Shown: positions 4,384 to 50,175 of the stretch, in pieces
How positions within the stretch are numbered: position 1 is the first letter of the stretch
Layout of the letters: each line of letters opens with the position of its first letter
Assembly (NCBI GenBank): GCA_964621305.1
Contig: CAZUOM010000001.1
Span: forward strand, 229,448-293,447
Direction: 5' to 3'
From: an uncultured Gammaproteobacteria bacterium
Lineage (GTDB): Bacteria; Patescibacteriota; Microgenomatia; UBA10105; UBA927
DNA length: 64,000 nucleotides
Notes under the pieces: model-generated
The model's database searches: none
What the model saw: only the letters and a program-made list of their open reading frames with translations
What the model was told of the DNA's origin: nothing
Translations under genes and position numbers: made by a program

Positions 4384-5061
4384 TTACTTCTTCGGCTTGA
4401 TGCGCAGGAGGAGTTTGCGGGAGAGGTCGTCGTAGAAAACTTTCATTTTCGGTATCGGAAGCGATACCCGAAGGCTTGGCCACGACTCAATTTTTTCTAT
4501 TTGTGCTATGGAGTTAGCTAAAAAAAACTCTTCAAGTCCCGCGTCTTTTTGCTTAGCCAGGGAAAAAGCTTTGTCAAAGGTAATATTTGTTTTGGTCATA
4601 ATGATGTAAAAATCGATAAAGTCCTTTGGTTCAAGTCTTCCAAAGATAGTCAGTAGCTTGTTTGAAGCGATATTCTCAATTGCGTCAACGGCAACGTCGT
4701 CAATCGTAACAAGTTTCCCAAAATGAATCGGTTGATCAGCAACAATGTCAATTCGCTGTTCCCACCCTTCTCGTTGGTTTTGTAGATAAAGTTCGTTATA
4801 GTTATCTGTTCTTACCTTTGCAAAGATGGTAGCTTCAAGTTTGTCAGCTATGCTCTGCATGACAGCCTGCATTGACTTATAATCGTAGGGCTTGAGGGTA
4901 AAAAAATCCAAATCTTTACTCTCCCTATGAGCAAAATAAAACGCCGACAGTGCTGTACCACCGGTCAGAAAAAAATCTTTGCCAAATCCACTTCGAAAAA
5001 AAATCTCGAGGATTTGAATTTGATAAGAAGTGAGAATAGGGTTCTTATGAAGACGATACAT
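4384..5061 (-). CDS. nucleotidyltransferase AbiEii/AbiGii-family toxin (type IV TA)
   Basis: 'LTGGTALSAFYFAHRESKDLDFF' matches the DUF1814/AbiEii NTase motif (GGTAL...DLDF). Confidence 0.7.
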   Translation of the reverse strand: MYRLHKNPILTSYQIQILEIFFRSGFGKDFFLTGGTALSAFYFAHRESKDLDFFTLKPYDYKSMQAVMQSIADKLEATIFAKVRTDNYNELYLQNQREGWEQRIDIVADQPIHFGKLVTIDDVAVDAIENIASNKLLTIFGRLEPKDFIDFYIIMTKTNITFDKAFSLAKQKDAGLEEFFLANSIAQIEKIESWPSLRVSLPIPKMKVFYDDLSRKLLLRIKPKK

Positions 5062-6735: not shown

Positions 6736-6789
6736 GGCGAGGGTTTGGACCCGAATTTTTTGGGCAGGCCCTCGCTTTTTTTTGATGAA
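6736..6789. terminator. hairpin + T-run (rho-independent terminator-like) downstream of serpin
   Basis: gcgaggg...ccctcgc stem with inner ggacc/ggccc pairing, followed by T9. A near-identical element recurs at 9251..9292. Confidence 0.45.
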
Positions 6790-8954: not shown

Positions 8955-9118
8955 GCTGATGCTCGTTATTTGGGCCCAGTAGAATGACCTAAACGGCTTA
9001 GAGTGTATCACAAAAAAAAGAATCTTCAATCTACCGGCTTCTTGTAATTAGGCTTCTCTAACGAAAAGTGCCCCATCGTTGCTTTTTCCCAAAATTTATT
9101 ATCTCTTTGGCTTTATTT

Positions 9119-9247
9119 GCAGGAGGAGTTTGCGGGAGAGGTCGTCGTAGAAAACTTTCATTTTCGGTATCGGAAGCGATACCCGAAGGCTTGGCCGCGA
9201 CTCAATTTTTTCTATTTGTGCTATGGAGTTAGCTAAAAAAACTCCTC
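9119..9247. repeat. about 128-bp near-identical duplicate of the 3' coding end of AbiEii gene 4384..5061 (relic gene fragment)
   Basis: 9119..9247 matches 4404..4530 with only about 3 mismatches. It lacks the last 6 codons and the rest of the gene. Confidence 0.8.
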
Positions 9248-9250
9248 AAA

Positions 9251-9292
9251 GGTTTTGGGCCCGAATTTTTTGGGCAGGCCCTCGCTTTTTTT
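9251..9292. repeat. second copy of hairpin/T-run element seen at 6741..6789
   Basis: 'gg(g/t)tttgg(a/g)cccgaattttttgggcaggccctcgcttttttt' shared between 6741..6783 and 9251..9292. Confidence 0.6.
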
Positions 9293-18447: not shown

Positions 18448-18840
18448 ATGACCAAATTATCAAAAGATGAATTATTAAAAGCAGTTGAGGAGATGAGCGT
18501 TTTGGAGCTGGCTGATTTCGTGAAAGCCTTGGAGGAAAAATTCGGCGTGAGCGCCCAGCCAGTAGCTGTGCCAGCGACTGTGCCCGCCGAAGCTTCAGCG
18601 AAGGAGGGAGCGAATGCCCCCGAACAGACTGTATTCAACGTCGTTCTTGCGGCACCCGGAGACAACAAAATCGGCGTCATCAAAGCTGTCCGCGAGCTCG
18701 TCCCAACTCTCGGACTCCAGGAGGCAAAGATTCTCGTTGAATCTGCTCCCAAGGACGTCCTAACTGCTGTCAACAAGGCAACAGCCGAGGAGGCAAAAAA
18801 GAAATTGGAAGCAGCGGGTGCAAAAGTGGATCTCAACTAA
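18448..18840 (+). CDS. rplL: 50S ribosomal protein L7/L12
   Basis: '[27 protein letters not shown]' ... '[24 protein letters not shown]'. Good RBS ggaggtga. Confidence 0.9.
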
Positions 18841-18848
18841 GCCATTTC

Positions 18849-18863
18849 CAAGGGGTCCCCTTG
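18849..18863. repeat. REP type 1 palindrome caaggggtccccttg (copy a, just after rplL stop)
   Basis: Near-perfect 15-bp palindrome. Same motif at 19075..19089 and 19611..19625. Confidence 0.8.
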
Positions 18864-18882
18864 ATTTTGCCGTAACAACGGG

Positions 18883-19578
18883 CTATGTGTCTTGACCATC
18901 AATACTCATTGTATAAATAAATTCACTATCTCCCGCCTGGGATACAAAAGATTCATAGGACAAATGCGGATTCTTCCGAGAAAAGTAAGAAAGGATTTCA
19001 GTGGTAGACAGCCACATCGTCTTACGGCGACCAAGATAATCTAAATAAGACGAAGGCTGCTCTGACAACATTTCCAAGGGGACCCCTTGCAAAGCTAATG
19101 GGTTGCGATGAATATAGCGGGATAGATGCTGGAGCTGTTCATCGGTTGTGACCAGAACTGCTTTATAAACACCTTGATACAGCGGCCCTACCCGTTTATT
19201 TTTCCTATTAAAATACATCGTATATCGAGTGCATAACGAGTTCATAAATGTATCGACAGCTGTTCCCTCCTTCTGTTTGACTAAAAGATGAAAATGGTTC
19301 GGCATGAGACAGTAAGCAAAAAGACGTATCGAGCCAAAAAAATTGTTGAGTTGAAGTGATTTGAGAATCTTATGTTTCTCTTTTGAAGAAACGGTCGGGT
19401 CGGCCAAACGACTACGAAGAGACTTTTTGTCTTTCTGTAGAAGATATTCTTTCAGATACGACAAAAATACACTATAGTCTTGGGCATCTTGAAAGATAAT
19501 CCGCTTCTCTACTCCGCGATTGTAAATATGGTAATACCCATTGGTAACGTAAAGCTTTTCAGAGTTTTTTGCAGGCAT
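18883..19578 (-). CDS. REP-associated tyrosine transposase (IS200/IS605-like Y1 HUH transposase, RAYT), paralog 1
   Basis: 'YHIYNRGVEKRIIF' and HUH motif 'MPNHFHLL'. Flanked by REP type 1 palindromes, with one more inside the CDS (encoding ALQGVPLEM). Confidence 0.7.
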   Translation of the reverse strand: MPAKNSEKLYVTNGYYHIYNRGVEKRIIFQDAQDYSVFLSYLKEYLLQKDKKSLRSRLADPTVSSKEKHKILKSLQLNNFFGSIRLFAYCLMPNHFHLLVKQKEGTAVDTFMNSLCTRYTMYFNRKNKRVGPLYQGVYKAVLVTTDEQLQHLSRYIHRNPLALQGVPLEMLSEQPSSYLDYLGRRKTMWLSTTEILSYFSRKNPHLSYESFVSQAGDSEFIYTMSIDGQDT

Positions 19579-19607
19579 ATATATACTTTATCTTGTCCTC
19601 ACAACTT

Positions 19608-19628
19608 TTACAAGGGGTCCCCTTGTAA
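19608..19628. repeat. REP type 1 extended palindrome ttacaaggggtccccttgtaa (copy c)
   Basis: 21-bp palindrome 30 nt upstream of the RAYT-1 start. Confidence 0.8.
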
Positions 19629-19766
19629 GTGCTCCTTTTGATTACCCCTTTGATTCCTCTTGACAAGGTATGAGCATTGATGATACTTTACGATAAATAT
19701 TGATATCACTTGAAATTCGCTCAGGCGAATTCAAGTGTAAACCCCCGCCCAATAGAAGGAGGACCT

Positions 19767-19967
19767 ATGTCCCTCGGTGATGACTGGCCAGGTCTTTTAA
19801 CTGTCCGCGAAGTGGCAAAAATCCTGCGCGTCTCGCCTCTGACGATCAAACGCTGGGGCAAGCGCGGCAAACTGCCGGCTATTCGCATTAACTCCCGCGG
19901 CGACCGCAGGTATAAAAAAGAGGCGGTCATGTGGTTGTTAGGCCTCCAGCAAAAAGGACAAGGGTAA
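19767..19967 (+). CDS. helix-turn-helix DNA-binding protein (excisionase/AlpA/MerR-like)
   Basis: 'LTVREVAKILRVSPLTIKRWGKRGKLPAIRI' is a classic HTH of the excisionase family. Strong RBS aaggagga before ATG 19767. Confidence 0.55.
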   Translation: MSLGDDWPGLLTVREVAKILRVSPLTIKRWGKRGKLPAIRINSRGDRRYKKEAVMWLLGLQQKGQG

Positions 19968-39097: not shown

Positions 39098-39133
39098 AAG
39101 GCCCCCTAGCCTGAAAAGGCGAGGCCTTTTCTA
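39098..39133. terminator. hairpin aaggcc...ggcctt with A-tract/T-tract flanks (bidirectional terminator-like)
   Basis: aaaaaaataaggccccctagcctgaaaaggcgaggccttttct. Confidence 0.4.
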
Positions 39134-39173
39134 GCTAACTTTATGTATCAAGATATTATTTGTATGACCCTGG

Positions 39174-43807: not shown

Positions 43808-43975
43808 AAATTTTTGCGGGGCCAACCGAGCGCTCTACACTGAAAATTACTTCGTAATTTCCAGTGTAAACCAACTGTTTACTCGGTACATCTTTCAAGA
43901 TGTTACCGAGAGCTATACCCTCAGGCGATTTTCATTGTAGCAAATTTGCAGTTTTTGCGATATACTAGACTTCTC

Positions 43976-44626
43976 ATGAACTTATCCTTCAGGAAATCCT
44001 CCGATCCCCTGCCTCCTCCCCCAGTCCAAGTCATTCTTGCTTCCCAGTCCCTCGGCCGGCGGCACCTTCTGGAAAAACTGGGCATCCCGTTTCGGGTAGT
44101 AATTAGCCGCATTGAGGAAGAAAAAATTACTAACAGCGATCCTTTTCTCACTCTCAAAAAGCGGGCAGCAGCCAAGGCCGAGGAAGTTTCTAAAAATCCG
44201 CGCGTTTATTCCTTGCCGGAATCCGGCAAGGCACTGATAGTTGCAGCTGATTCAATGGGCGTCTTGGGCAAAAAAACTTTCGGCAAATCCCGCGATCGGG
44301 AGGACACAAAGGAAATTCTTAAAAATCTCATGGGCCGCACCCATGTATTCGCCACGCACACAGTAGCATTGTACCTTGAAAACCTAGAAGAGAAGAAACG
44401 GTGGGAAAAGCTCGTCAAAACGCGCGTAACGCTAAGAAAACTAACGGCAACCGAAGTCGATAGCTTCGTCAACCGCTACGACCTGTCCCGCTTTGCCGCC
44501 GGCTACGCGCTCAACGAAACCCCCTGGGATTTAGTCACCAAAATCGAGGGAAGCTACACGAATGTCATTGGCCTCCCGTTTGAAGTGCTTCTCCCTGTCC
44601 TTCGCCAACACAAGATTATCATCTGA
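43976..44626 (+). CDS. maf: Maf-like nucleoside triphosphate pyrophosphatase
   Basis: 'VILASQSLGRRHLLEKLGIPFRVV' and 'VAADSMGVLGKKTFGKSRDREDTKEIL' match the Maf family. Start at Met-11 of the track ORF. Confidence 0.75.
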   Translation: MNLSFRKSSDPLPPPPVQVILASQSLGRRHLLEKLGIPFRVVISRIEEEKITNSDPFLTLKKRAAAKAEEVSKNPRVYSLPESGKALIVAADSMGVLGKKTFGKSRDREDTKEILKNLMGRTHVFATHTVALYLENLEEKKRWEKLVKTRVTLRKLTATEVDSFVNRYDLSRFAAGYALNETPWDLVTKIEGSYTNVIGLPFEVLLPVLRQHKIII

Positions 44627-44780: not shown

Positions 44781-45971
44781 ATGAAGATCGACATGGACGA
44801 TTGGCGCATCCAAAGTATTGCACAGCTACAAGATCTCCTCAAGGGAACGGAGCGGTTTGTCGTATCTTTGGAGCACGGCTCCATTGAAGAAAAGTACCGG
44901 TTCATTGACCGTACCGTTGACCGCTTCCAGTATCAGACGCTTACGAGGAGACAGCGGCATGCCGTCTACCGCTATCTGCCAAAGGTGACGGGCTACAAGA
45001 AAGCCTAACTCCTCCGGCTCATCAAACGGGCAGTGGTGGGAAAACTCATACGGAAGGAGTACAAAAGGAGAAATCCCAACCGCATCTACACCAGTCGTGA
45101 TATTAAGCTCCTGGAGAAAACAGATGAGCTTCACCTTCGCCTCTCCGACCGGGCAACACAAGAAATTCTCCGACGTGAGTACGAAGTGTTCGACAAAAAG
45201 GAGTATCAAACCATTGCCCGTGTCTCTCATGGACACATCACCAATCTCCGGCATCACCCCCTCTATGTAAATGCGTACGTCAACCACACCAAAGCCCGAC
45301 TCATCCCCATCGGGATGACCAGACCTCCGGAAACCTACGGCAGGCCAGGCTCGATTCGGGTTGATACAGTCCACCAAAGAGACATCTACCACATTAACGC
45401 GGTGGATGAGATTACCCAGTGGGAAGTCCTGGTCTCTGTACCCGTCATCAGTGAAGTCTGCATGCTGCCGGCTATCTCTATCCTTCTTGACCAGTTTCCT
45501 TTCACGATCTTCAACTTCCACTCTGACCGGGGAGGAGAGGCGATCAACTATCTGGTTTCTGATTTTCTCCAGAAGCTCCTCATCACCCAGACCAAGTCAA
45601 GAGCACGTCACCCCAATGACAACGCGCTTGTGGAAACCAAAAACGGCAGTGTAGTCAGGAAGAACATGGGGTGGGAACACGTGAGCCAACAGTTTGCCGA
45701 TAGTTTCACTGTTTACTACCGTACCTGGTTCAACCCCTATCTCAACTTCCACCGGCCCTGTGCATTTCCGACCATAAATAAGGATGAGAAGGGAAAAACC
45801 AGGAAGGTCTATGAGATCTACCAAACCCCATATGATGCTCTCAAGGGCATTCCAGGGGCTCACAGGTTTTTGAAACCCGGGCAAACTTTTGAAAAACTTG
45901 ATACAATAGCCTATGCCATGAGTGACAATGAGTTTGCTGAACTGATACGGTATCATTTTTCGATTGAGTAG
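44781..45971 (+). mobile_element. IS481-like DDE transposase gene interrupted by an in-frame TAA (pseudogene or readthrough)
   Basis: ORFs 44781..45008 and 45033..45971 are in the same frame, separated by TAA at 45006. The C-terminal part has the integrase-core 'FHSDRGGEAINY' ... 'HPNDNALVETKNG' (DDE, rve). The N-terminal part has an HTH-like region. Confidence 0.6.
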
Positions 45972-45994
45972 GACTACGTTGTGAGGTTTATCTT

Positions 45995-46020
45995 TAGCTT
46001 CGCAAGGACTCTCCTTGCAA
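45995..46020. repeat. REP type 2 palindrome tagcttcgcaaggactctccttgcaa (copy a, upstream of RAYT-2)
   Basis: Palindromic core gcaagga(c/g)(t/a)ctccttgc. Copies at 46536..46561, 46742..46772, 49640..49669. Confidence 0.8.
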
Positions 46021-46048: not shown

Positions 46049-46744
46049 ATGCCCGCAAAACACGCAATCAAAGAGTTCGCGCCTCACGCCTACTACCACA
46101 TCTACAACCGCGGTGTAGAAAAACGCACCATTTTCCTCGACCAACAGGATCGCGCTGTCTTCCTTTCCTACCTCAAAGTGTATCTGCTCCCAAAAGAAAA
46201 AGACGTACTGCTCGGAGTTATTGCAAATCCAGAATCTTCATCCAAAGAAAAAGATCAGGCGCTGAAATTGTTGCGCCTCAATAACTTTGCTGATTCGCTT
46301 ACTCTGCTGGCGTTTTGTCTCATGCCCAACCATTTCCATCTCCTTATTAAACAAACAGACGCAATAACGATAGATCATTTTATGAGATCGTTCGGTACAC
46401 GGTACACGATGTATTTCAACCGGAAGTATCGTCGGGTAGGAGGATTGTTCCAAGGTGTCTATAAAGCCGTGCAAGTTGTAAGCAACGAACAACTTCTTCA
46501 CCTTTCTCGTTACATTCACCGCAACCCCATAGATCTAGCTTCGCAAGGAGAGTCCTTGCAAAACTTTAGCTACTCATCTTATCCCAAATATCTAGGAATA
46601 ACCCATACAGAGTGGGTCCATCCAGAAGATATTCTCTCCACTTTTCCAAAATCCGGCAAACGAGGTTACAAAGAATTTGTTGAAGGGCCATCAGATGAGG
46701 CCGGAAAACTGGCAATTGCCAAACTTATCATCGACGTTGACTAG
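46049..46744 (+). CDS. REP-associated tyrosine transposase (RAYT), paralog 2
   Basis: 'YHIYNRGVEKRTIF', 'MPNHFHLLIKQ' HUH motif. Highly similar to 18883..19578. REP type 2 lies upstream, at its stop codon, and inside the CDS (encoding LASQGESLQN). Confidence 0.7.
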   Translation: MPAKHAIKEFAPHAYYHIYNRGVEKRTIFLDQQDRAVFLSYLKVYLLPKEKDVLLGVIANPESSSKEKDQALKLLRLNNFADSLTLLAFCLMPNHFHLLIKQTDAITIDHFMRSFGTRYTMYFNRKYRRVGGLFQGVYKAVQVVSNEQLLHLSRYIHRNPIDLASQGESLQNFSYSSYPKYLGITHTEWVHPEDILSTFPKSGKRGYKEFVEGPSDEAGKLAIAKLIIDVD

Positions 46745-46772
46745 CTTCGCAAGGAGAGTCCTTGCGAAGCTA
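46742..46772. repeat. REP type 2 palindrome (copy c) overlapping the RAYT-2 stop codon
   Basis: tagcttcgcaaggagagtccttgcgaagcta, a perfect 31-bp palindrome apart from its centre. Confidence 0.8.
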
Positions 46773-48888: not shown

Positions 48889-50175
48889 TTACAGCTTAAG
48901 CATGTATTCAAGTTTTTCATCTCTCGGTTTGTTCCACACCAGTGCCATATTGAGGGTTTTTGTGACCAGATACTTTCTTACTAGTCGGTTGATGTCCTCT
49001 TTTGTAACCTTTTCTATCTTTTTGAGATATTCATCCAGCGTCAAAATGGGCTGACCGAAGACTTCCTGCCGTCCGTAAAACTCGGTCATAAACTCCGGGT
49101 CCTCAGCTTTAAATGCCATCATGGTTTTGATCCGTTTTTTGGCAACAGCAACTTCTTTCTCCGTTACTCCTTTCTCTCCCGCTTTTGCCAACTCTGCCAG
49201 TATTGCTTGTGTTGCTTGTGTTACTTTCTCTGTAGCCACACCAGCATAGATACTCCAGTACCCCACGTCTGCCCAGTTATTGGAGTTTGACCGGATGTGG
49301 TAACACAGTCCCCGCTTTTCGCGGATTTCCTTAAATAGCCGGCTGGTAAACGAGACACCCATAAGGAGATTAAAGACATTCCATGCAAACCGATCCTCGC
49401 TCCCCCGGCAAAACGTACGAAAGCCTAAAACCAGATGCGCCTGACTCGCATCGGGCTTGGTGACGACCTCAAGCTTGGGCTTACTTTGATGATTAACGAT
49501 CCTCTCCGCCTCCTCGGCGGACCCGCCGGTGAGGCTGGCAAACCACTCTTCTGTTTTCTGTCTGACGGCTGATGACTGACGACTGATGGCTCCTGCCAAC
49601 ACCACCACCATCCTACCAGGCGTGTACCAACGATCGTAGTAGCTTCGCAAGGACTCTCCTTGCAAAGCTAAGAGGCTTTCTGGTTCGCCGATTGTTCGCA
49701 TGCCGAGGCTAGTCGCTGGGTACATCATCGTGTGAAACGTTTCTTCTACTTTTGCTTCCGGCTCATCCTCGTAACGCTTCATTTCTTCGAGAATCACGCT
49801 GCGCTCCCGGTCGATGTGCTTCTGTTCGATTAATGGCGCCAGAGCAAGCTCGCGATTTATCTCTAGCGCTAGCTCCCAATCAGTGCTTAATACCTTGTTG
49901 TGGTAGTTGGTGATATCTATATCTGTATAGGCGTTTTGCAGCCCACCGATCCGCTCAATGATGTTGACGTCGTCGGTGGTAGGGTACCTTTTGGTTCCTT
50001 TGAAGACCATATGCTCCAAGAAATGGGAAACTCCGTTAATATCTTTGGTTTCGTAGCGGCTGCCCACCGCCACCATGACAGCCGTTGCCACACTGTTGAC
50101 GCCCTGCATTGGGACGAGAATGAGCCGAACGCCGCTTGGGAGGGTGGTTTTGTCGTAAGGGTTCCCTGTCTGCAT
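48889..50175 (-). CDS. M16-family (pitrilysin/insulinase-like) zinc peptidase
   Basis: 'HFLEHMVFKGT' inverted zinc motif HxxEH. 428 aa. Carries an in-frame REP type 2 copy (49640..49669, encoding LALQGESLRS) and a CTGATG-rich repeat (49541..49580). Confidence 0.8.
   Translation of the reverse strand: MQTGNPYDKTTLPSGVRLILVPMQGVNSVATAVMVAVGSRYETKDINGVSHFLEHMVFKGTKRYPTTDDVNIIERIGGLQNAYTDIDITNYHNKVLSTDWELALEINRELALAPLIEQKHIDRERSVILEEMKRYEDEPEAKVEETFHTMMYPATSLGMRTIGEPESLLALQGESLRSYYDRWYTPGRMVVVLAGAISRQSSAVRQKTEEWFASLTGGSAEEAERIVNHQSKPKLEVVTKPDASQAHLVLGFRTFCRGSEDRFAWNVFNLLMGVSFTSRLFKEIREKRGLCYHIRSNSNNWADVGYWSIYAGVATEKVTQATQAILAELAKAGEKGVTEKEVAVAKKRIKTMMAFKAEDPEFMTEFYGRQEVFGQPILTLDEYLKKIEKVTKEDINRLVRKYLVTKTLNMALVWNKPRDEKLEYMLKL
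49640..49669. repeat. REP type 2 palindrome (copy d) inside the M16 peptidase CDS
   Basis: tagcttcgcaaggactctccttgcaaagcta. Confidence 0.8.

Follow-up and report, generated by a model that had tools for sequence, protein, structure and literature searches.

Why would a gene for a presumed DNA-mobilizing enzyme harbor, within its own reading frame, the very palindrome that borders it on both sides? The question is raised by RAYT1, a Y1/HUH single-strand-DNA transposase-like gene next to rplL in a stretch of 64 kb (the window, meaning the whole stretch of DNA that was analyzed), for which an original prediction had proposed a repetitive extragenic palindrome (REP) paired with a REP-associated tyrosine transposase (RAYT). 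Most likely, the locus comprises a vertically inherited gene of a Microgenomates-type bacterium of the candidate phyla radiation (CPR), which would encode a RAYT-type (HUH/Y1) enzyme that cleaves and joins single-stranded DNA (ssDNA), together with the cognate hairpins of this enzyme. Two points had been missed in the prediction: the internal copy of the palindrome is conserved, and all copies evolve in concert.

When the window was searched for the palindrome CAAGGGGWCCCCTTG with up to two mismatches, matches were found only at 18849–18863, 19075–19089 and 19611–19625, all at the RAYT1 locus. Shuffled sequence gives an expectation of 0.07 matches, and three were reached in 0 of 100 shuffles: The three predicted occurrences are a real, related set. 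They are arranged as follows.

18448–18840, plus strand: rplL (ribosomal protein L7/L12; Pfam Ribosomal_L12 and L12_N), a conserved neighbor by which the locus is anchored
18844–18863 (core 18849–18863), minus strand: downstream hairpin copy of RAYT1 with a CATTTC flank, between the convergent stops of rplL and RAYT1
18883–19578, minus strand: RAYT1, a Y1/HUH single-strand-DNA transposase-like gene of 231 amino acids (Pfam Y1_Tnp PF01797, E = 4e-10)
19075–19089 (core; with its TTAGC tag to 19098), minus strand: internal in-frame copy of RAYT1, encoding L-A-L-Q-G-V-P-L
19608–19628 (core 19611–19625), minus strand: upstream hairpin copy in the RAYT1 leader, a perfect 21-nt palindrome TTACAAGGGGWCCCCTTGTAA

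The geometry had been described accurately. The downstream copy starts 8 nt past the rplL stop, directly behind which it had been placed, and 19 nt past the RAYT1 stop; the upstream copy, reported as a 21-bp palindrome about 30 nt before the start, has its core 32 nt from the ATG, or 29 nt if the whole 21-nt palindrome is counted. The internal copy at 19075 lies in frame as proposed, its codons GCT TTG CAA GGG GTC CCC TTG GAA ATG encoding ALQGVPLEM (residues 162–170), and the flank said to be common to the copies at 18844 and 19070 is indeed present as CATTTCCAAGGGG. Internal and upstream copy are 84% identical across 31 nt. The TTAGC tag of the internal copy, which reads GCTAA at 19094–19098 on the plus strand, is absent from the two flanking copies, which instead have a 3' flank, GAAATG or TAAAAG on the coding strand, in common; the shared 3' flank runs direct in all three copies. 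Since a promoter-like site (19709–19680, minus strand; consensus match only) lies beyond the upstream hairpin, the latter would be part of the 5' untranslated region. Divergent from RAYT1, a MerR/excisionase-type helix-turn-helix (HTH) gene occupies 19710–19967, and a similar small HTH gene is found near the RAYT1 orthologue at two other loci (L091, L092).

Is the in-frame palindrome tied to the flanking ones, or to the protein? The window itself offers a comparison in RAYT2, a paralogue of RAYT1 with a hairpin set of its own.

45994–46018, plus strand: upstream copy of RAYT2, TTAGCTTC (GCAAGGA-CTC-TCCTTGC, loop flipped), 30 nt before the ATG
46049–46744, plus strand: RAYT2, 57% identical to RAYT1 (tblastn, NCBIfam and sequence)
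46535–46559, plus strand: internal in-frame copy of RAYT2, CTAGCTTC (GCAAGGA-GAG-TCCTTGC), encoding LASQGESLQ and homologous to the internal copy of RAYT1
46742–46772, no strand assigned: downstream copy of RAYT2, a perfect 31-nt palindrome (−26.3 kcal/mol, z = −6.9)
49640–49671, minus strand: fourth copy of the RAYT2 hairpin, in frame within an M16 peptidase gene (48889–50175, minus strand) and encoding LALQGESLRS

At the same three homologous places RAYT2 has a palindrome that differs from that of RAYT1, TAGCTTC-GCAAGGA-(GAG/CTC)-TCCTTGC, and the in-gene hairpin therefore co-varies with the flanking hairpins. The RAYT2 in-frame peptide LASQGESLQ directly follows YIHRNP, and the terminal TAG and CTA of the 46742–46772 palindrome are the stop codons of RAYT2 (plus strand) and of the convergent ndk (minus strand), with no intergenic spacer in between. 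Immediately upstream of the RAYT2 leader hairpin lies an open reading frame (ORF) of 312 amino acids (45033–45971) with weak similarity to IS3/IS481-type (DDE) transposases; the ndk–maf interval that contains this ORF and RAYT2 is far shorter in relatives (L081), and the position of RAYT2 is not conserved relative to L081–L085.

The same three-site layout extends over a very large family. A homologue search with 8000 scored candidates, 7877 of them at E <= 1e-5, places RAYT1 among PF01797 proteins of about 230 amino acids from Patescibacteria/CPR (Levy-, Davies- and Gottesmanbacteria as well as others). In their alignment the segment behind the invariant Y-I-H reads LA[LS]QGxAL, which can be encoded by a palindrome, and a QG..L-type peptide is present in nearly all of the 120 best homologues. 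We compared the hairpins of 80 loci fetched from reference genomes: At many of them the in-gene palindrome recurs 9–50 nt before the start and 0–21 nt after the stop, with cores that are quite unlike each other between loci (CCGCAAGGCGAGGCCTTGCGG, CAGGGCCTCGCCCTG, CCAAGCCAGGCTTGG, AAAAGGTTAAACCTTTT, CCTACGAGGACTCTCCTCGTAGG). Among relatives of at least 51% identity, and counting 14–15 matches out of 15, 20 of 23 loci have the internal 15-mer again within the 120 nt upstream of their own gene and 14 of 24 have it in their own downstream region, whereas mismatched pairs of loci agree at a mean of 10.6 of 15 positions (99th percentile 14). The pattern also occurs in about nine deeper lineages, where the upstream hairpin lies just 9–16 nt from the ATG; it is mostly absent from more distant homologues, those of the NPVxxGLV...WSSY type. 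The layout with three sites characterizes a large clade, which answers the question, raised with the original prediction, of whether the position of the internal copy is conserved in RAYT homologues: It is a conserved feature of the family. Nor does the family encode this peptide without palindromic DNA, an outcome that would have spoken against the prediction: The consensus LA[LS]QGxAL is written with palindromic DNA that co-varies with each locus's own flanking hairpins. In a deeper subfamily (L028, L030, L032, L052, L063 and L072) a fourth cognate hairpin lies in frame in an N-terminal insert at about nt 150–190 of the ORF, and L030 has an additional inverted pair 240–270 nt downstream.

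How the copies change is best read from orthologues at a fixed position. The three closest RAYT1 homologues that we looked up (73, 70 and 65% identity) are all convergent to rplJ–rplL, the rplJ–rplL/RAYT arrangement being the one seen at L086–L093. As the RAYT1 orthologues all adjoin rplL, the gene has been inherited vertically rather than by jumping. Their hairpins compare as follows.

RAYT1 of the window: CAAGGGGwCCCCTTG at all three sites
L086: CAAGGGCwGCCCTTG, likewise at each of the three
L089: two sites as in L086, the downstream copy having diverged
L091: CAAGGCCACCCCTTG at two sites, together with a flipped internal copy

Between L086 and the window, a G–C pair is exchanged for C–G in a compensatory manner at every site. 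Synteny of more than 4 kb, at a DNA identity of about 72%, links other pairs of loci: L003 and L005 (72% over 4.8 kb) nevertheless have different hairpins, each uniform across its three sites, and L015 and L016 (72% identical) have the same 17-mer intact at all sites. Hairpins that differ between loci, even between syntenic orthologues, and yet agree within a locus amount to concerted evolution. These RAYTs are thus not jumping insertion sequences but genes that stay in place, with hairpin copies that change in step. Shuffling of modules at the internal hairpin was also considered and rejected: A comparison of N- and C-terminal identity across the 120 homologues yielded one clear chimera (P0014), with a breakpoint at residues ~124–144 in conserved sequence away from the hairpin, which may be an assembly artefact.

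The structure of the hairpins was assessed by covariation in a gap-free alignment of 17 in-gene copies folded as a symmetric helix. In this helix, 77% of the cells are paired and 10 of 13 pairs have changed on both sides, values that were matched by 0 of 500 shuffles and compare with at most 52.5% in slid registers. The six inner pairs are Watson–Crick in 96 of 102 cases and never G–T, and the mismatches overall comprise 11 G–T and 15 A–C. Because G–T and A–C are balanced and the inner stem is devoid of G–T, there is no RNA-type bias, and a DNA palindrome fits the data better than an RNA structure. On the coding strand, TTAGC(Y)T(Y)G forms the 5' foot of most copies, those upstream in non-coding DNA among them; in relatives, 30 copies have TAGC on this 5' side and 2 have it in the reverse sense. 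Within the gene the tag translates as Leu-Ala, and at many downstream copies its TAG is the stop codon of the RAYT gene, in line with the documented location of REPs near stop codons and the use of their TAG termini as such (PMC3733652). Loops are frequently flipped between copies within a fixed flank, and in L003 an asymmetric mismatch in the stem is flipped as well.

Is the protein a plausible partner of such hairpins? The assignment of the gene as a RAYT is supported in that it encodes a RAYT-like Y1/HUH enzyme; its Pfam match, Y1_Tnp (PF01797), spans the whole superfamily. Of the NCBIfam models, REP_Tyr_transpos (NF047646) is the sole hit, scoring RAYT1 at 47.2 bits and RAYT2 at 42.5, both under its cut-off of 80, and the IS200/IS605 models give no hit at E <= 0.01. 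The catalytic motifs of RAYT1 are intact as judged by sequence: HFH (95–97) and Y155 are invariant across 24 homologues. In an AlphaFold (AF2) model (mean pLDDT 83, pTM 0.82), whose best Foldseek match in the PDB is the E. coli RAYT–REP complex (4er8_A), ahead of the ISDra2 and IS608 transposases, the hairpin-encoded peptide forms the loop of lowest pLDDT (residues 162–165 below 50), directly behind the catalytic helix 146–156. In two relatives (L010 and P0083) the internal hairpin is gone, with the reading frame kept and the linker shortened (YIHVQAIQSRTPSSY); L010 (1965–2594) retains both flanking hairpins. The internal copy is thus located in a loop that the model predicts with low confidence, and it is deletable in nature.

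Beyond its three gene-associated sites, the RAYT2 hairpin has one extra copy in the window, which lies 3 kb off in the M16 gene (49640–49671) and is identical to the RAYT2 downstream copy at 30 of 31 nt. Alignment with PDB homologues and 120 orthologues revealed no insertion or deletion at this site, and a hairpin-type peptide is present at the same position in 19 of the 120. In the DNA of three other species the site has the same outer stem, TTAGCYTYG...CGARGCTA, around different, compensating inner stems. Among the fetched M16 loci of other species, which contain no RAYT, no hairpin cores in common with RAYT hairpins were found; the link between M16 and RAYT is accordingly a matter of the 64-kb window alone. 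One M16 orthologue that lacks the LLA-type peptide (L105, 733–2040) has CGTAGC followed by a 10-nt palindrome CGGAGCTCCG at this site; its CGTAGC is one base off the register of the TTAGC tag of the others and may be due to chance.

Taken in full, the reading that we favor, and hold to be probable though by no means assured, is that the hairpins are the enzyme's own ssDNA sites, kept identical by copying, and that the internal copy is one member of this set, placed in a tolerant linker and possibly self-limiting. In this layout, one hairpin lies in the 5' leader, one in frame in the flexible linker behind the helix of the catalytic tyrosine, and one at or just past the stop. By analogy with REP/RAYT and IS200/IS605 systems, these hairpins would be the ssDNA substrates of the encoded enzyme. 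Copying from site to site would keep them identical, for which the enzyme's cleave-and-rejoin chemistry appears the likeliest route and local template switching the alternative. The internal copy would persist through repeated rewriting and may provide the enzyme with a site for self-limitation in its own gene. The steps from cognate sites to an enzyme that copies them, and to an internal copy that regulates, are ones that we infer.

Several points weigh against this reading. The link between enzyme and hairpins is drawn from sequence and analogy, and within ~700 nt recombination or template switching could yield concerted evolution without any contribution of the enzyme. The upstream and downstream copies of RAYT1 lack the TTAGC tag that most relatives carry. 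Moreover, the 64 kb contain no copy of the RAYT1 palindrome outside its locus, which lends no support to the prediction of a REP as a dispersed repeat, and metagenomes yielded none in the vicinity of a RAYT: A scan of a metagenome collection that lacks the source genome, using the palindrome with its 3' tag, returned ten single copies in unrelated contexts, none beside a RAYT homologue. No REP population is thereby shown. Together with the single extra copy of the RAYT2 hairpin, and with about one extra copy per 30–40 kb of flank in relatives, the hairpins would form a low-copy family at best. Finally, the identity between the M16 copy and RAYT2 comprises only ~5 variable positions, the same variant recurs at other loci, e.g., L007, and the match may be a coincidence, at roughly the 5–10% level.

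A further proposal, which we put forward only tentatively, builds on the M16 copy: In CPR bacteria, enzymes of the RAYT type may actively replace the hairpins at existing sites by the current "master" hairpin, including sites in frame within their own gene and within housekeeping genes such as that of the M16 peptidase, and the linker copy would then provide the enzyme with a self-recognition or self-limiting site. The in-frame copy in the enzyme's own gene and the length-neutral copy in M16 both suggest that the hairpins can be rewritten in place.

Which other explanations could account for the same pattern? The one that survives best, although we regard it as rather unlikely, denies a role to both the enzyme and the internal copy: An ancestral REP-like hairpin, inserted into a tolerant linker or arisen there, would be a passive hitchhiker, and the host's ordinary short-tract gene conversion, or replication template switching from palindrome to palindrome, would homogenize its copies. 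The proximity of the copies, which lie within ~750 nt of one another, is in keeping with this, as are the flipped loops and the flipped asymmetric stem mismatch of L003, both expected from template switching within a hairpin, and a deletion variant of the slippage type in L009. That L010 and P0083 can do without the internal copy and that its peptide falls into a disordered loop of the AF2 model would likewise suit a passenger. A passenger should, however, hardly show a layout that persists over a very large clade, with the QG..L-type peptide in nearly all of the 120 best homologues, nor an orientation of the tag that is fixed even in the non-coding upstream copies, nor hairpins that are kept perfectly at 72% background identity (L015/L016). 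The matching copy 3 kb away in the M16 gene also speaks against it, and repeats of 15–25 nt are short for conversion of the RecA type.

Distinctly improbable, in our estimation, is control at the RNA level, in which the hairpins would act in the RAYT mRNA as signals for stability, processing, translational pausing or termination, the downstream one also ending rplL. All copies would be co-transcribed with the gene, the upstream one is situated between the promoter-like site and the ATG, and the short distance of 9–16 nt between hairpin and ATG in deeper relatives as well as the documented REPs near stops with TAG termini as stop codons (PMC3733652) would fit such a function. Yet a role in RNA requires neither that the three hairpins be identical in sequence nor that they change jointly, and the sense strand shows no enrichment of G–U (11 G–T versus 15 A–C, none in the inner stem). 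The proposed double role of the 18849 hairpin as rplL terminator found no support: On the plus strand it was not called by a consensus terminator scan, its stability of −7.8 kcal/mol (z = −0.41) is no better than that of shuffled sequence, and the stem is followed by only four T, with no T-run at all on the rplL strand in the orthologue L086.

Very little speaks for an active insertion sequence of the IS200/IS605 type, with the flanking hairpins as left and right ends and the internal one as an alternative end for shorter mobile derivatives. A Y1 gene with a same-strand (direct) hairpin at either end has the layout of IS200/IS605, the upstream–internal pair is the best conserved one (20/23, versus 14/24 for the downstream copy), and RAYT2 has no conserved position relative to L081–L085. 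On the other hand, the window contains neither near-identical copies of the gene, its paralogues being just 57% identical, nor partial copies; synteny between species holds for RAYT1 and several other pairs, and NCBIfam gave no IS200/IS605 hit, its sole hit being the RAYT model. Coincidence, with a peptide that is conserved for the sake of the protein and by chance can be written as a palindrome, as the consensus LALQGxAL would permit, is refuted by palindromes that vary by locus and match their own non-coding flanks, by the own-versus-other comparison and by the covariation, and is also at odds with three matches against 0.07 expected and with a peptide seated in a disordered, length-variable linker.

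The enzyme's own hairpins, as we prefer to read them, resemble several known systems, of which the REP/RAYT pair or REPtron, a RAYT (TnpA-REP) flanked by cognate REPs (Nunvar 2010, PMC2817692; Ton-Hoang 2012, PMC3333891; Corneloup 2021, PMC8266576), is the closest. RAYTs are single, vertically inherited genes at a conserved locus (Bertels 2017, PMC5581495), and their cognate REPs are dispersed, abundant genomic repeats, usually with more than 100 copies per genome. RAYT1 shares with REPtrons the Y1/HUH enzyme with the E. coli RAYT and its REP as best structural match, the short palindromes that border the gene, which in most relatives have a TAG-containing 5' tag, the several diverged paralogues per genome, each with its own hairpin, the conserved chromosomal position (65–73% identical orthologues convergent to rplL) and an apparent co-evolution of enzyme and hairpin. 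It differs in having a cognate hairpin within the reading frame, where its position is conserved, in that the flanking copies are direct (30 versus 2) instead of inverted, in the tag of its internal copy and of relatives (TTAGC instead of GTAG), in that no high-copy dispersed family was seen in the 64 kb or in the metagenome scan, and in the protein itself, which at 231 amino acids has an insert and a C-terminal extension and scores under the NCBIfam RAYT cut-off. In the RAYT literature that we searched we came across no REP located within the reading frame of a RAYT, an absence that is no proof of novelty, and no description of a layout with an internal copy that is common to a large family and whose copies change together.

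IS200/IS605 elements (IS608, ISDra2, IS200) have the same catalytic fold and subterminal hairpins on the same strand at both gene ends; in contrast to them, the loci considered here are syntenic, show no identical copies or signs of recent mobility, and give no NCBIfam IS200 hit. We know of no IS200/IS605 element with a third, in-frame end. Palindromes in frame within protein genes are reportedly also found as Rickettsia palindromic elements (RPEs), which add residues to their host proteins, whereas the M16 copy replaces about ten codons at unchanged length. With RPEs and the known intragenic REPs of other genes (Di Nocera 2013, PMC3733652), the present hairpins share that palindromes are tolerated in frame and that TAG termini of REPs serve as stop codons (cf. 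46742–46772); what sets them apart is the location within the gene of the presumed mobilizing enzyme itself, at a position conserved over a large family.

For the unresolved question of how RAYTs generate and spread REPs and keep them uniform, this family constitutes a compact natural experiment with thousands of loci of three to four copies each: As the hairpin positions are fixed and can be aligned, concerted change is directly readable from comparisons of orthologues. If the enzyme does rewrite these sites, it would add a new activity to those of HUH/Y1 proteins, and if overwriting proves true, it would provide a natural system for the length-neutral, site-directed replacement of stretches of about ten codons. 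The outcome would also bear on the annotation of CPR genomes, in which such proteins carry the plain label "transposase".

The window holds a few further palindromes and repeats. An orphan intergenic hairpin of the same class as those of the RAYT genes lies at 39106–39137 (39113–39131) and consists of CTAGCCT, GAAAAGGC, GAG, GCCTTTTC and TAGCTA, with no cognate RAYT in the window. A perfect palindrome with a 10-bp stem and without a TAGC tag, CCTTGCCGGAATCCGGCAAGG, is located at 44211–44231 inside a Maf-like gene (43946–44626). Unrelated to the RAYT hairpins are a 43-nt repeat (6740–6782 and 9250–9292) as well as a 143-nt direct repeat (4384–4526 and 9099–9241), which is 95% identical between its two copies and holds the hairpin GGTATCGGAAGCGATACC.

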